From NCBI RefSeq assembly GCF_011745625.1, contig NW_027191477.1, positions 62,001 through 126,000 of the forward strand: a stretch of DNA of 64,000 bases, given 5' to 3'. The stretch comes from Cladosporium halotolerans (Eukaryota). The notes beneath the pieces are model-generated. The model searched no databases, had not been told where the DNA came from, and saw nothing but the letters and a program-made list of their open reading frames with translations. Shown here piece by piece: positions 13,423 to 19,059 of this stretch (positions are counted from its first letter, which is position 1; every line of letters starts with the position of its first letter). The translations under genes were made by a program, and so were the position numbers.

Positions 13423-13590
13423 TCACCCCGTCGGACCCCTAGGACCCATCGGGCCTGTCGGGCCTGTCGGACCCGTTGAACCTCTTGGACCCGTTGGGCC
13501 TGTCGGGCCCGTTGGACCTCTCAGACCCATTGGACCTGTCGGGCCTGGCGGACCTGTTGGACCTGATGGACCCGTCGGACCCCCCAGGCC
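13423..13590 (-). repeat. 9-bp-period tandem repeat (GGYCCRACR-like) encoding collagen-like (Gly-X-Y)18, in frame with the HRP1-like stop
   Basis: Minus strand reads [55 protein letters not shown]. Confidence 0.9.
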
Positions 13591-13605: not shown

Positions 13606-16483
13606 CTACTTCGCGTTGCGTCCGTAGGGATCAAACCTGCCACCGCCACGACCGCCACGTCCGCCGCCGCGGTAGTTGGAGCCAGGCATGCCAGCATTCT
13701 TCGGTCCAGTCGGAGCATTGGCCGGAGCATTTCCAGGGGTCCCGCCGCCGCGCGGAGCAGCAGCGCCGCCGCCACCACGGCCTCCGCGGCCAGCGAATCC
13801 GCCGCGGTTGTTGTTATTGTTGTTGACGCCCGCGGGCGCCGGGACGTCGTCGTACATGCCGTCCCAGGCGGCGCCGGCGGCGAAGTTCTGGCCCTGCATG
13901 CGGGCCATCTGCTGGCGCTCGTACTTCTGCTGTTCGAAGGCCATCTGCTCCTGCGGGTTGAAACCGGCCTGCTGAGGCTGCTGTTGCGGTTGCTGTTGCT
14001 GGCCGGGGCCGGGGGAAGCGGAGCCAGGCATGCCGCCGCCCTGCTGGAACCCGCCGGCGCCGCCCATCTGCTGCATCATGCCTGGGTTCATGCCGCCGCC
14101 GTTAGCGCCGGGCTGCTGGCCGCCGCCGCGGCCCATGTTGGCCATCATTTGCTGCATCATCGCCGGGTTCTGCTGCATGGCGGCCATCTGCGGGTTCATG
14201 CCGCCTCCCATGCCGCCTCCCATGCCGCCGCCCTGCTGCATCGTCTGCTGCATCATCTGGAAATACTGCTGCATGCGCTGCCAGTACTGAGCCATCATGG
14301 CCGGGCTCATGGCATTAGCACCGCCGGCCTGAGCGGTCTGGTCCTGCTGAGCGCCGAAACCGCCCTGGTTGGCAGCGCCGCCTCTGCCAGCGCCGCCGAA
14401 GCGGCCGCCGCGACCGCCGCCGCCTTCCTCGCGCAGGTTGCCGCGGGGCTCGGCGCGCTTGACTTCGATGGGCTTTCCGTGGATGGCGAGGGGCTGGGAG
14501 AGGGCGCGCTCGACGGCCTGGTCGTCGTCGAAAGTGACAAAGCCGAAGCCACGGGGACGGCCAGTGTCCTTGTCCATCATAAGGGTGCAGTCAAGGACGT
14601 TACCGAAAGCGGCGAAGAACTGGCGGAAATCGGTCTCGGTGGCCTCCTGGGACACACCTCCGACAAAAATCTTGGAAGTCTTCTCCTGCTCATCACGCGG
14701 AATAGCGCGCTTGGGGTCGATCTGCGAGTGAGTGTTAGCTGGTGTAAGCTATAATGTGAGCTGCGATGTGCCATACCAGCTTGCCGTCAAGGAGATGCTC
14801 CTTGACCATAACGACGTTGACGACCTTGGGGTCCTTGAAGGTGAGGAAGCCAAAGCCACGCGAGCGTCCAGTGACGCCGTCGCGCATGACTGTGCATTCG
14901 GTGACTTCGCCGAATTGAGTGAAGTAATCCTTGAGTGATTCTAGATACTTGGTCAGAAAAGTGTCAGATCATATGTGAGTGATGGTGCTTACGATCTGTG
15001 GTCTCCCAGTTAAGGCCACCAATGAACATTTTCCTGTTGACATGTTAGCGATTAATTTCTCCGGTAACTCCAACCGAGCATTTTTGCTATCAGCGTGCGT
15101 GCAAGTGGCATCGTGTGCAAAGGCGAGAATAAGATCCAGGATCGCGGAAGCCGTTGCAAGTTTATACAGCCACGGTCCGCGTCGTCGGGGCTGGCAAGGC
15201 CAAGCTCTGTTTCGGGCAATTGCAGATATGTGTTCGACAACACAAGCCGAAGTTACGTGGGCGGTTGACGTCGAGCCGCGTAGAAAGAAGCATGATGTAT
15301 GCTCAAACGCCAGGCCATACAGAGTTCCGGCTTTGGTTGAGCCGTACGCCTACAAGCATCTTCTCATCGCCGCCTCGAGAACAACCCCCATGAGCCGCGC
15401 ATCAATTGTGCGTGCAAGCTGAGAGACAGACAGGATGGTGCTGCTTGTATGCTTCGTTATACGGAGCTGCATGTCCGCTGGCCGCTCTTAAAGAGCCGCA
15501 CAGCTGAGGTATATCCACTATCTTCTCATCTGCTTGCTAAGTAGCTGCGGTTATCGACTTGAAGCTATGGTTGCTGAAGACTGTATGGTATGTTCGACAA
15601 TTTCCAGAAGGCCAGGTTCTGCACGTTCCCCACGTGCGAGCAAAAATAAGAGTATACTGGCACCGCAATGCCGACCCAGTCCGCTTCCATGCCATCTTTT
15701 GACCCAATGCACCAAGCTTGCAACCTCCTCCAATCGTGTTCATCCAAGTGATGATATAGTCTGCCGTAGGTGTCGGCGACAAGGACTAGTGGCAATGTCC
15801 TTTGCAAGACTCATTCCATCCTCGGAACTGCAGTATCCTCGAGCCGCTTTGCTCTTCAGAGTACAGACCGGTCCAATGAACCTCCACTCGCTCTCAAAAC
15901 GTGCGAAACAGAACAAGCTCGAGTGGCAACCGAGCTTTTCGCTTCGTTCTACAAGGTCGCATGACCCACCGACCAGTTCCCAATATCACAAATTTTGGTC
16001 GTACGTGTCCGCGATAGAATCCAGAGGCAAATCCTCTCAGTAGTGTCTTGCACACCATGGCGCGCACATTGCACGCGCGCTGATAGTATACTGCTTTCGT
16101 TAGTAAGGGCGGTGAAACTCACCCGTCATCCTTCATGTGCACCGGGGTACGGTCGACTTCGGGTGCGGCTTCATAGCTAGGCTGAGCTGGGGCGGTGGCA
16201 ACGCCGTCCATCTCTTCAGCCGAGGGGTCAAAGGGCTTCGCATCATCGTCGTCCTGCTGCTGTGCGGGTGCGTTGCCGTTCGAGTCGGCTGCCGGAACGG
16301 ATGCCTCAGGCTCGGGCTTGGGCGCCTCGGTCGCAGGGCGGGCGGCTTCCGGTTCGACGTCCTCGCCGTCATAGCTGTGTGTGAGTTAGTCCTGCTGCTG
16401 CTACTGCTGCTGCTGGCTGCTGTTCGGTGTTCGCGGGGTGCTTACAGATCGGCGAAGAGATCCTCGTCGGCGGTGTCGGCCAT
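13606..16483 (-). CDS. HRP1: Two-RRM hnRNP/Musashi-type RNA-binding protein, Hrp1/Nab4-like
   Basis: [14 protein letters not shown]...[12 protein letters not shown]...[10 protein letters not shown]...KIFVGGV...[13 protein letters not shown]-rich and RGG tail, PY-NLS-like RFDPY. Introns 16375-16445, 15034-16122, 14941-14992, 14722-14776. Confidence 0.88.
16392..16421. repeat. (CTG)n microsatellite in HRP1 intron 1
   Basis: ctgctgctgctactgctgctgctggctgctg. Confidence 0.7.
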
Positions 16484-17045: not shown

Positions 17046-19059
17046 ATGGTCCAGGTCGGTTCGTATCCAGCCCGCATAGCAACCGAGATCAACTCAGGCT
17101 AACGTCCACCTTTACGATGCTAAAGACCGATCTGAGTATGCACATTTACAAGACTCCTATTATTGTATTTCCAAAATGCTCATCCCAGTTCTAGATCTGC
17201 GTCTCCGTTCTGGCGCACGGCGAGCGCCAACAGCCAGCGCGACAAGCGACAACAACATACATCTCTCCCCGAGAAAGAGCGCAAAGTGATTGGCGCAAGT
17301 TATTCGCATGCCGACATCTTGAATTTCAGCAATCTGTACGTCTTCTCTCAGCGACTAGCAGCGTCACCGCTAATTGAGCAAGCAATCTATCGAGCAACTC
17401 GCGACCACGAACCCCTCCAACGCTCTCGAGGAACAAAAGCACGCCTCCTCCGAATACAACCGCTTCGCCTCCTCAGCGGCGCATGTACACAAGCTTTCTC
17501 TCGAGTTCAGAAGACGTCCGCGTCGCGGAGCAAGATGGGGAAGATGAGGATCTCGGCTTTGATGAGGACGAGGACGAGTTCGGTCTGCCCAGCATAGCTT
17601 CCATGCGGCGGAAGGGCAAGAGGACACTCAACAAACCTGCGAGGGAGTACGCAAACGCCACGAATACAGCGAACAACCTGCGGAACGGCAACAATGCGGC
17701 GAGTACGCTGGCTAATTGGGCACTGGACAATGGAGATGTCGCGGAAGAGCGCACACTCCCCACCTATCCTTCAGCGAAAAAGATCGAAGGCAAGATCCTC
17801 AGACCGCAGTACAAGGATATCCTACGAGATCCGGCAAACTCGTTACACCTCATAAGCCATCCACCAGTGCCTCCAGGCGCGTCGGCCAAAGAGTTGGAGG
17901 CGCATTCCGCGCGGATAACACGCATTAACAAGTTCAAGCGAATCTTGCAGGCATCTACGATCAACGTTGGCGAATTGCGGGAGGCTGCATGGTCAGGGCT
18001 GCCATCGGAGGTCAGAGCGATGTCATGGCAGTTGCTCCTTGGATATCTGCCGACCAGCAGCGAACGACGCGTTGCCACGCTGGAGCGAAAACGCAAAGAG
18101 TACCTCGACGGTGTACGACAGGCTTTCGATCGAGGCGGTGCCAGTAATTTCGTACCCGCGACAGGTCTCGCTGCGCTGCAATCATCGCCGGCTTCGCAAT
18201 TGCGTGGCAAAAACAGAGGGCTTGATGAAGCAGTGTGGCACCAGATCAGCATCGACGTCCCGCGGACAAATCCACACCTCGAGCTCTACAGCTACGAAGC
18301 GACGCAGCGGAGTCTGGAGCGAATACTGTATTTGTGGGCGATTCGACATCCCGCGTCTGGTTACGTTCAAGGAATCAACGATCTTGTCACACCTTTCTGG
18401 CAAGTATTCCTGGGCCAATACGTCACGGATTCAGAAGTGGATTCGGGCATGGATCCAGGGCAACTGCCAAAAGCCGTCCTGGACGCTGTCGAAGCGGACA
18501 GCTTCTGGTGTCTGACCAAACTTCTCGATGGCATCCAGGACAACTACATCCACGCTCAGCCAGGCATCCAACGGCAAGTCGCTGCGTTGCGTGACCTGAC
18601 AGCGAGGATAGATGGCACATTAGCCAAGCACATGGAGCGGGAAGGAGTCGAATTCATCCAGTTCAGTTTCAGGTGGATGAACTGCCTTCTCATGCGTGAG
18701 ATCAGCGTGAAGAACACAATAAGAATGTGGGACACGTATCTTGTGAGTGCAACCCTTACAGCCGACTCACAAATCGAATACAACAAAGCTAACCAACCGT
18801 CAATCCGTAGGCTGAAGACCAAGGCTTCTCCGCCTTCCACCTCTACGTGTGCGCCGCCTTCCTCGTCAAATGGTCGGACAAGCTCTGCAAAATGGACTTC
18901 CAGGAGATCATGATGTTCCTGCAGGCCCTGCCAACGAAGAACTGGACTGAGAAAGACATCGAGCTCCTGCTCAGCGAGGCGTTCATCTGGCAGAGTCTCT
19001 TCAAGAATAGCCAGGCACATGTGCAGAAACGAGAGGGCGCCGGCACGCTCACCTTGTGA
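17046..19059 (+). CDS. GYP1: TBC-domain Rab GTPase-activating protein
   Basis: QISIDVPRT, GYVQGINDL, EADSFWC, QFSFRWMNCLLMRE. Proposed exons 17046-17058, 17126-17135, 17195-17335, 17383-18742, 18811-19059; the 5' exons are less certain. Confidence 0.9.

Follow-up and report, generated by a model that had tools for sequence, protein, structure and literature searches.

A long-range stem and a conserved UAGC-rich core in the 1089-nt HRP1 intron of Cladosporium halotolerans

The HRP1 gene and its long second intron

The window analysed here, a 64-kb stretch of Cladosporium halotolerans DNA, carries on its minus strand a gene whose product combines two RRMs with a Gly/Met/Gln-rich tail. The RRM_1 domain is matched twice, in exons 4 and 5, and the top solved relative of the protein is yeast Hrp1/Nab4 (2CJK/2KM8, E 4e-45), with hnRNP A2/B1 behind it (1.7e-32). 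Judged from these comparisons, the gene is the HRP1/NAB4 (CF IB) orthologue, its tandem RRMs being closest to those of yeast Hrp1. A search for longer homologous proteins returned only PABPs and gene models of excessive length. All four exon junctions are present in the RNA contigs of runs X16 and X5.

13606..16483, minus strand: HRP1/NAB4 orthologue, five coding exons, 536 amino acids
16483-16446, 16374-16123, 15033-14993, 14940-14777 and 14721-13606, minus strand: HRP1 coding exons, open frame of 1611 nt
15034..16122, minus strand: HRP1 intron 2, 1089 nt, phase 2 (GG/G), junction in X16 and X5 RNA contigs
15044..15049, minus strand: GCUAAC, presumably the branch site in use, its branch A 11 nt upstream of the acceptor AG (15035-15034)

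Hrp1 of yeast and, by support, FgHRP1 of Fusarium act in mRNA 3'-end formation and bind UA-rich elements; according to a Fusarium preprint, FgHRP1 influences which poly(A) sites are used, favouring proximal ones, and how far introns are retained, and its loss results in a genome-wide poly(A)-site shift and more intron retention (10.1101/2021.11.08.467853). The efficiency element described in the same preprint is TAKMTA, UAGCUA included, and FgUPF1 is there suggested as a factor that may not degrade premature-stop transcripts (10.1101/2021.11.08.467853).

Intron 2 sits immediately before the start of RRM1 (KMFIGGLNW). Its donor is GUGAGU at 16122 and its acceptor CAG ends at 15034, and with its junction found in contigs of two RNA runs the length of 1089 nt given in an earlier note on this DNA holds. 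The other three introns of the gene measure 71, 52 and 55 nt. At the same site the intron is long, 772–1648 nt, in all 47 orthologous loci that extend at least 1700 nt upstream, and the branch motif GCURAC is kept in 8/8 sequences of the closest clade (window included). An intron that is much longer than the norm (1089 versus 52–71 nt in the same gene) and that is conserved as such is what is expected of an autoregulatory intron. As far as orthologous sequences can tell, intron 2 is ancient in the HRP1 genes of Pezizomycotina and has been conserved there. A description of this HRP1 intron was not found in a full-text literature search, and the Rfam 15 covariance models gave no match in intron 2 at E ≤1, the only match at that threshold being a chance-level one to a bacterial sRNA outside the intron.

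The stem between the intron ends

The earlier note had described two helices that pair the beginning of intron 2 with its end, and an inverted-repeat search recovered both of them:

16069..16086, minus strand: 5' arm of the main helix, CUAUCAGCGCGCGUGCAA, aligned and kept in 8/8 clade sequences
15087..15104, minus strand: 3' arm of the main helix, UUGCACGCACGCUGAUAG, 17/18 complementary to the 5' arm
16048..16059, minus strand: 5' arm of the second helix, CAUGGUGUGCAA, inverted repeat of 11/12
15109..15120, minus strand: 3' arm of the second helix, UUGCACACGAUG, 11/12 complementary to 16059-16048

The identity of the repeats is 94% for the main and 92% for the second helix and, again as noted earlier, 36 nt precede the 5' arm and 53 nt follow the 3' arm. 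The single mismatch of the main helix in the window is C.A, at a position where seven relatives carry U:A. None of 300 dinucleotide shuffles of intron 2 yields an inverted repeat of at least 18 with at most one mismatch (the longest is 17, in 8/300), and the duplex formed by the first 110 nt and the last 120 nt has an energy of -79.5 kcal/mol compared with -53.5 +/- 8.4, a value reached by 1/300 shuffles. When the whole intron is folded, the stem is present in both the MFE and the centroid structure. In the X15 contig, which comes from a relative, the 3' arm region (15087-15125) has 0 substitutions among the differences listed, compared with at least nine in the 3' linker (15050-15086).

Separately, we note that in runs X15 and X8 the intron is covered by DNA-like contigs that are about 96–97% identical to it. 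Two further pairings were considered and rejected. An outer pairing of the donor (GUGAGUUUC with 15059-15048) is attributed to chance, because relatives pair otherwise and the 3' linker is substituted in the relative's contig; an alternative partner for the 5' arm, the arm-like copy at 15418-15408 that the inverted-repeat search likewise returned, was set aside since it is not kept in relatives.

The stem is kept in seven related metagenome introns, with one compensatory pair. The RNAalifold consensus of the eight clade sequences contains a helix of 16 pairs, 14 of which are standard in 7–8/8 sequences, and the covarying pair is C:G in the window, U:A in six sequences and U:G in one. Lack of conservation or covariation of the arms is what the earlier note had named as speaking against its proposal; with the arms in 8/8 sequences and one covarying pair, the stem withstands that test. 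The helix core of 10–14 bp is invariant within the clade, covariation being limited to the one pair, and the core is therefore uninformative as to structure over sequence. The sequence of the second helix's 5' arm is not kept in relatives, where other helices form at this place.

Several more distant lineages have a stem of different arm sequence in the same place: 19–23 bp in L030, L033, L036 and L050, 17–20 bp in L027, and 15 bp in L039 and L063. In 13 of 31 representative introns, the duplex of the cognate ends ranks among the top ~10% when set against 60 non-cognate combinations, with about 3.6 expected; by the single-helix measure 10/31 are at 0.05 or below and 21/31 are non-significant. 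In the end-to-end duplex test excess end pairing is missing in about half of the representatives (z at or above -0.5 in 14/31), and, by the single-helix measure, stems of at least 12 pairs leave linkers of 42–85 nt in only 6/24. In the window and its clade, the stem at the intron ends is real, non-random and conserved.

In yeast, a helix that reaches from shortly after the 5' splice site to shortly before the branch point is called a zipper stem, and the geometric definition in the Methods of PMC12350175 sets the total length of the two linkers at 42–85 nt. The HRP1 intron 2 stem fits this published definition: it pairs at 17/18 positions with one C.A mismatch, and begins 36 nt after the 5' splice site and ends 38 nt before the branch site, which gives linkers totalling 74 nt in the window; in the related locus L001 the total is 75 nt. 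Like the zipper stems described for Saccharomyces cerevisiae (RPS17B/RP51B and others; PMC2536676, PMC12350175), the HRP1 stem has arm sequences that drift between lineages. It differs from them in that it spans about 960 nt rather than a few hundred, occurs in a filamentous fungus with introns normally of 50–70 nt and, as a predicted stem, has a helix core that is invariant in the clade and encloses a conserved central element.

The central element and unspliced intron-2 RNA

When intron 2 is compared with its relatives by blastn, only three parts align, one of them a central island with a deeply conserved core:

15413..15713, minus strand: central conserved island, one of the three intron parts aligned by blastn, 76–80% identity
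15519..15579, minus strand: deeply conserved core (…CAACCAUAGCUUCAAGUCGAUAACC…UUAGCAAGCAG…), defined by an HMM, UAGC-rich

Parts of the island are invariant in 8/8 clade sequences, and its DNA is more conserved than the coding exons. An HMM of the island matches 10 loci. The HMM of the core matches 35/51 distinct introns, once each, on the sense strand and at mid-length. In the 64-kb window it has a single match (E 3.1e-10), and across 80 loci there is none outside this intron; it misses 16/51 introns (the clusters with L027, L030, L074, L031, L046 and others). The most enriched 5-mer is ATAGC, observed 83 times compared with 35.2 expected (z 8.1), at a density of 2.33 per kb in the introns versus 0.86 per kb in the flanks, with 57/83 copies at relative intron positions 0.4–0.6. 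Its strand bias (83 sense versus 29 antisense) is in part due to the descent of a single homologous element whose orientation is fixed; each island has several UAGC copies, all in one orientation.

The island folds no more stably than its shuffles (z -0.07), which fits linear binding sites and led us to reject it as a stable structured RNA. Hexamers of the TAKMTA efficiency element peak in mid-intron, with 15/38 in the 0.4–0.5 bin. The positioning-element hexamer AATWVA is found 21 times on the sense and 50 times on the antisense strand and not at all in the central bins, where T6 runs are rare; given the depletion of the positioning element on the sense strand, the island was rejected as a full poly(A) signal.

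RNA was available as assembled contigs of unrecorded library type, from which neither strand nor level can be read; total RNA favours long nascent introns, and contigs drop rare forms. With this reading in mind, one X16 contig (15005-16151) spans exon 3, the entire intron 2 and exon 2 at a depth of 85.6, where the junction unitig of intron 2 has 77.3 and the exons have 297–387. In X5, a contig that runs from exon 2 into intron 2 (16151-15642) has a depth of 94.6 versus 83.9 for the junction. This X5 contig ends at 15642 and 15065-15619 is uncovered, a stretch that counts as no evidence and from which we draw nothing. Contig bin means put the cover of introns 1, 3 and 4 at zero in X16 and X5: each mean is fully accounted for by the exon part of its bin at exon depth, and these introns are therefore uncovered. 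A retained intron 2 ends the reading frame at once (GGG UGA), and the product would therefore be one without RRMs. By contig evidence, unspliced intron-2 RNA is thus selective and non-productive and makes up about half of the total, as is expected of an autoregulatory intron. A conserved, clamped long intron about half of whose RNA is unspliced suggests that intron 2 is used to set HRP1's own output.

We also considered whether the long intron might instead be two tiny introns flanking a giant poison exon. This reading was rejected: near the 3' arm there is no usable donor (GUUGGA and GUUACC only, neither of them conserved), and the unspliced X16 contig has no internal joint.

A proposed mechanism, related systems and alternatives

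Our best reading, to which we assign a probability of about 0.5, is a zipper stem in an ancient, probably autoregulatory HRP1 intron. The stem would pair sites that lie 36 nt downstream of the 5' splice site and 38 nt upstream of the branch site, cutting the path from donor to branch from about 1070 to about 74 nt and looping out about 960 nt, and this shortened path would make it possible to splice an intron that is unusually long for a fungus. The looped-out middle would present the conserved, presumably single-stranded UAGC-rich element, the most likely binding site for a regulator, with the Hrp1 protein itself as first candidate. Where splicing failed, the retained intron would stop the frame at GGG UGA and yield an RRM-less product. 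The conserved stem, the long intron with its core element and the unspliced RNA were all observed here; from them we infer a splicing-promoting role of the stem, a core bound by Hrp1 and a circuit of negative autoregulation. Against binding of Hrp1 to the core, the known motif of the solved yeast Hrp1 is UAUAUA and not UAGC (PMC12458251). The fuller version, in which Pezizomycotina HRP1 carries an ancient intron feedback device whose zipper-closed loop of ~1 kb offers the UAGC core to Hrp1, and Hrp1, once bound, prevents excision of the intron or terminates the transcript inside it such that only an RRM-less stub is made, is put forward tentatively, as a possibility that we hold to be somewhat doubtful.

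The hnRNP A1 pre-mRNA, from an hnRNP A/B-type tandem-RRM gene, offers a possible parallel: looping-out is brought about either by hnRNP A1 binding or by inverted repeats that form a duplex, and splice sites far apart come close to each other through UAG-type sites and intron duplexes. The outcome in that animal system is exon skipping, not retention of a single long intron as in HRP1. Yeast HRP1 is not known to contain an intron. Protein feedback on the gene's own transcript is established for this same gene family in yeast, and the earlier note was right in that autoregulation of yeast HRP1 is in print; however, it is described as transcriptional, by premature termination at a 5'-UTR attenuator and not by splicing (Goguen and Brow 2023, cited in PMC12458251), and an intron-based route in Pezizomycotina would be a different mechanism.

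Closer in kind are yeast YRA1 and DBP2, reported to autoregulate via an unusually large intron (PMC12458251). They share with HRP1 the type of gene (an mRNA-processing or export factor), one intron far above the norm, inefficient splicing and non-productive unspliced RNA; HRP1 is another gene in another clade, has a defined conserved core and an end-bridging stem, and its autoregulation is presumed. In RPL7B, likewise a gene for an RNA-binding protein, a zipper stem is described as a splicing enhancer and the intron that contains it as serving negative autoregulation by the encoded protein (PMC12311795). The RPL7B switch is a conserved mutually exclusive structure, whereas in HRP1 the alternative pairing (15418-15408) is not kept in relatives. 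The '45ABC' element of plant RBP45, reported as a structured pre-mRNA element for auto-regulation by alternative splicing (PMC13485355), resembles the HRP1 island in being cis-acting, conserved and carried by the pre-mRNA of a gene for an RRM protein. The two are unrelated in sequence, and the HRP1 island is not predicted to be specially structured.

Of the alternatives, an intronic attenuator survives best, although we consider it unlikely. Here the central element would recruit Hrp1 together with the 3'-end or termination machinery, transcripts would end early within the intron, and the stem would only speed splicing against early termination; the arrangement would correspond, inside an intron, to the 5'-UTR attenuator of yeast HRP1 and to the intronic poly(A) sites proposed for YRA1 and DBP2. 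The transcriptional autoregulation of yeast HRP1 and the intronic poly(A) sites described or proposed for YRA1 and DBP2 (PMC12458251) are in line with this, as are the promotion of proximal poly(A) sites by FgHRP1 (10.1101/2021.11.08.467853) and the mid-intron peak of TAKMTA. However, the sense-strand depletion of AATWVA, its absence from the central bins and the rarity of T6 runs speak against it, and the single X16 contig spans the entire intron, such that many transcripts must read through.

A little less likely still is the switch that the earlier note had proposed. In that proposal a cryptic 3' splice site, made up of UACUAAC and CAG 16080, is masked by the stem, which thereby gates productive versus unproductive splicing: upon opening of the stem, donor 16122 would join the cryptic site and translation would meet a stop 14 codons later.

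16099..16105, minus strand: branch-point-like UACUAAC, 17 nt downstream of the donor; CAGs follow at 16093-16091 and 16082-16080

All of the motifs are in place: UACUAAC, the CAGs ending at 16091 and 16080, the second of which falls inside the 5' arm of the main helix, and a TGA (16039-16037) in frame after a 16123>16079 junction. In the clade, ACUAAY and the first YAG are found in 7/8 sequences and the YAG within the arm in 8/8, the covarying helix pair preserves the Y of YAG (C or U), and structural protection of cryptic 3' sites has been reported for yeast introns (PMC12350175). However, the branch A would lie 22 nt from the donor, compared with 38–58 nt in the gene's three other introns, and the intron would be 43 nt long, compared with 52–71 nt. 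CTRAY within the first 60 nt occurs in only 4/42 distinct introns outside the closest clade, and a first YAG ~30 nt past the donor is at chance level (2/64 triplets). The UAUA that had been pointed out between the two CAGs is present at 16090-16087, but only 1/8 clade sequences carries it. Neither of the predicted junctions, 16123>16079 and 16123>16090, is among the contig joints of four RNA runs (contigs drop rare forms), and the unproductive form that is seen is full retention. Of structure-gated splicing, then, the stem stands as real and conserved and intron 2 looks regulated, but the specific cryptic-site switch is unsupported.

We regard it as improbable that the intron hosts an independent non-coding RNA, the island, with the stem as a processing or stabilising signal such as a site for a double-strand RNase. 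The conservation of the island DNA above that of the coding exons, with parts invariant in 8/8, would suit such an RNA, and the consensus fold shows covariation at a few pairs within the island (e.g. columns 535:547 and 679:689). Yet no Rfam 15 family matches the intron at E ≤1, shuffled sequences fold as stably as the island, and the RNA contigs link the intron to both exons, like unspliced pre-mRNA and unlike an excised product.

More improbable again is a role of the core at the DNA level, either as an enhancer within the intron or as an internal promoter of an isoform shortened at its N-terminus, which would begin at AUG 15029 of KMFIGG; the stem would then be incidental. The fixed orientation and position of the core would equally fit a DNA element, and the AUG lies 4 nt into exon 3. 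On the other side, the UAGC copies share one orientation within each island, no contig begins in the intron and runs downstream only (contigs being weak evidence here), and end stems recur with different sequences, which argues for a signature at the RNA level. Finally, reading the arms as terminal inverted repeats of a DNA transposon or MITE inserted into a normal intron of ~89 nt, with pairing of no role in RNA, is close to refuted: the repeats do lie about 960 nt apart and leave a normal-sized intron outside, but the 64-kb window has no second copy of the intron or arms, no target-site duplication flanks the arms (…GUAUA / CAAAA…), the intron is long in 47/47 orthologous loci, and arms and interior are conserved at the orthologous place, with the core nowhere else in 80 metagenome loci.

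Hrp1 is a core mRNA 3'-end and termination factor, and if a zipper stem in an autoregulatory intron is the correct reading, the long intron, its unique core and the stem at its ends would together explain how a steady Hrp1 level is held in filamentous fungi. Zipper stems would then extend from budding yeast to fungi with very short introns, and the HRP1 intron would offer a compact model, of about 1.1 kb, for the way in which an RNA structure and a protein site jointly set intron retention. Should the feedback version also be true, intron 2 would play in filamentous fungi the part that the 5'-UTR attenuator plays in yeast HRP1, and the UAGC-type element would be an in vivo recognition site of fungal Hrp1.

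HRP1 and its long second intron

The gene, with an open frame of 1611 nt, is divided into five exons:

16483-16446, minus strand: HRP1 exon 1
16374-16123, minus strand: HRP1 exon 2
15033-14993, minus strand: HRP1 exon 3
14940-14777, minus strand: HRP1 exon 4
14721-13606, minus strand: HRP1 exon 5

The four introns measure 71, 1089, 52 and 55 nt, and RRM_1 domains were found in exons 4 and 5. Since the closest solved structure to the second RRM is that of yeast Hrp1/Nab4 (2CJK, E 4e-45), with hnRNP A2/B1 well behind (E 1.7e-32), the name HRP1 is fair. All four junctions, including that of the 1089-nt intron 2 (16122-15034), are present in assembled RNA contigs from two sequencing runs of two studies (X16 and X5). 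Intron 1 carries a (CAG)n-type run of about ten triplets (16392-16422), masked as a repeat in the RNA-contig comparison. Just 3' of the HRP1 stop (13606) lies a tandem array of about 17 GTCGGACCT-like units with 9-, 18- and 45-nt periods (13427-13582); it is open on the minus strand in a collagen-like G-P-T-G-P frame, shows a 36-nt copy-number change (13459>13496) in relatives' contigs from one DNA run and one RNA run, and is probably a 3'-UTR minisatellite. Upstream of HRP1, a plus-strand open frame (17378-18913, 511 aa stop-to-stop) is apparently its divergently transcribed neighbour.

Scanning metagenome contigs with the RRM2 exon yielded 80 loci (L001-L080). The KMFIGGLNW exon was found in 75 of these, preceded by a YAG at the same phase every time, and all 47 loci with at least 1700 nt upstream have a K-[DE]-[DE]-G/GT donor 772-1648 nt from the exon (median 1088). 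The long intron is therefore an ancestral feature shared by a broad range of relatives, with RRM2 74-99% identical to that of the window; the two introns after it remain short. Given its presence at the same site in 47/47 loci and the lack of a second copy in the 64-kb window, we rejected an origin of intron 2 as an inserted element. Within the first ~45 nt of the intron, many of the distant relatives (L013-L080) combine a run rich in pyrimidines with a YAG placed 26-45 nt past the donor, a spacing that by itself is at chance level; L027, L039, L042 and L048 have CUAAU or CUGAU in addition.

Depths in the assembled RNA contigs, for which library type is unrecorded and strand not given, are rough only. 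In X16, a single contig begins in exon 3, crosses the whole of intron 2 and ends in exon 2 (15005-16151); its depth is 85.6, compared with 77.3 for the spliced-junction unitig and 297-387 for the exons. In X5, a contig that starts in exon 2 and reaches into intron 2 (16151-15642) stands at 94.6 versus 83.9 for the junction. Introns 1, 3 and 4 have zero cover in the contigs of both runs, since their bin means are fully explained by exon depth multiplied by the exon share of the bin (e.g. 296.7 x 66/111 = 176.4 for the intron-4 bin). This shows that intron 2 alone remains unspliced at a high level and excludes DNA contamination as the source of its cover. Because the frame across the intron-2 donor reads GG/G UGA, the unspliced RNA can encode only a 97-residue acidic N-terminus with no RRM.

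A long-range stem between the intron ends

The earlier note had described a stem clamping intron 2, and sequence and repeat searches confirmed all its coordinates: a 17/18 main helix (16086-16069 with 15104-15087), a second helix of 11/12, and 36 + 53 nt outside the helices. When the intron was dinucleotide-shuffled 300 times, no shuffle held an 18-nt inverted repeat mismatched at one position or none; the pairing of the intron ends, -79.5 kcal/mol against -53.5 +/- 8.4 in shuffles, was equalled by 1 of 300, and the stem is contained in both the minimum-energy and the centroid fold predicted for the whole intron. With 17 pairs in the main helix and linkers of 36 + 38 = 74 nt, the predicted stem has the geometry by which zipper stems are defined in yeast (Methods of PMC12350175).

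Seven distinct full introns from 12 loci of close relatives (RRM2 98-99% identical) were aligned with that of the window. By blastn, only three parts of the relatives' introns align with the window's:

First ~55 nt of the intron, minus strand: up to the end of the 5' arm
15713-15413, minus strand: central island, 76-80% identity
Last few bases of the intron, minus strand: 3' end

The consensus fold of these eight clade sequences contains a 16-pair long-range helix, 14 pairs of which are standard in 7-8 of the eight. One pair covaries, the window's C:G corresponding to U:A in six relatives and to U:G in one, and a C.A mismatch in the window's helix is U:A in the other sequences. The helix core of 10-14 bp is invariant within the clade and so cannot separate structural from sequence constraint. 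The sequence of the second helix is not kept in the relatives, where other helices form adjoining the helix core. Distant lineages have a stem at the same place, with quite different arm sequences:

L030/L033/L036/L050 group: 19-23 bp
L027: 17-20 bp
L039 and L063: 15 bp
L026, L044, L046, L055 and L064: long, composite

Among 31 representative introns, the cognate 5'/3' end duplex falls in the best ~10% of non-cognate pairings in 13 (~3.6 expected), and 10 are at <=0.05 by a single-helix measure; compared with non-cognate end combinations, excess pairing is absent altogether in 14. As judged by sequence, end pairing across relatives is recurrent, not universal.

According to the earlier note, the stem gates a cryptic 3' splice site and thereby switches between productive and unproductive splicing. 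The small motifs it named can all be read from the sequence (UACUAAC at 16105-16099, CAGs ending at 16091 and 16080, UAUA, and TGA at 16039-16037), and ACUAAY with two YAGs is retained in 7-8 of the eight clade sequences. However, the cryptic branch A lies just 22 nt from the donor, compared with 38-58 nt in HRP1's real introns, CTRAY occurs within the first 60 nt of only 4 of 42 other distinct introns outside the clade, the first YAG near +30 is at chance expectation, and the alternative junction was not found among the joints of the assembled RNA contigs. We retain this switch as a minor rival.

A conserved element at the centre of intron 2

Some stretches of the island are invariant in all eight clade sequences, and its DNA sequence is better conserved than that of the coding exons (73-80%). 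An HMM of its ~60-nt core (…CAUAGCYU…GUCGAKAUA…) matches 35 of 51 distinct introns, once per intron, on the sense strand and at 0.43-0.55 of intron length. Across the 80 loci, 43/43 matches lie inside the HRP1 long intron, and the sole match in the 64-kb window is at 15579-15519. In an unbiased count over the 31 representative introns, ATAGC is the top-enriched 5-mer (83 versus 35.2 expected, z 8.1), at 2.33 per kb in the intron versus 0.86 per kb in the flanks, with 57 of the 83 copies at 0.4-0.6 of intron length; its strand bias (83 sense versus 29 antisense) is owed in part to a single inherited element of fixed orientation.

Because the island folds no more stably than shuffles (z -0.07) and no Rfam family matches it, it looks like an array of candidate linear protein-binding sites, not a structured RNA. 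A full poly(A) signal is disfavoured: going by the Fusarium motifs taken from 10.1101/2021.11.08.467853, TAKMTA efficiency hexamers peak in the intron centre, but positioning hexamers (AATWVA) are scarcer on the sense strand than on the antisense strand (21 versus 50) and missing from the centre.

A hairpin in the island, GCACG…CGUGC (15621-15638, minus strand), lies immediately past a U-run; in the seven relatives it reads GCGCG…CGCGC in the same columns, with pair 535:547 changed from A:U to G:C. Clusters without a core match (L027/L039/L053, the L030 group, L074/L076/L080 and L013/L014) have mid-intron blocks conserved within the cluster, with several UAGC copies and AGACAGACA-type runs. 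At the island's 3' edge, the window clade instead carries CUGUCUGUCUC, the reverse complement of a AGACAGACA-type run.

Possible feedback through intron 2

HRP1 intron 2 is conserved, clamped, poorly spliced and long, with a unique central element. We infer that the stem would join the donor and branch-site regions and so promote productive splicing, while the core may bind a regulator, most simply Hrp1 itself, that would keep the intron unspliced and thus provide negative feedback; less likely, the core-bound regulator would terminate transcripts within intron 2. Feedback by Hrp1 is plausible because of published precedents: yeast HRP1 is autoregulated via a 5'-UTR attenuator, and YRA1 and DBP2 through unusually large introns (PMC12458251), RPL7B autoregulation consists in blocking a zipper stem (PMC12311795), and Fusarium FgHRP1 influences both which poly(A) sites are chosen and the retention of introns (10.1101/2021.11.08.467853). 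Counting against Hrp1 as the core binder, the yeast protein's target is given as (UA)n, not UAGC (PMC12458251). Both zipper stems and the autoregulation of RNA-binding proteins through introns are already known; in the portions of the literature searched, we found no account of the long intron of HRP1 or of the core element and stem within it. There is a good chance that HRP1 intron 2 is a real, old regulatory device.
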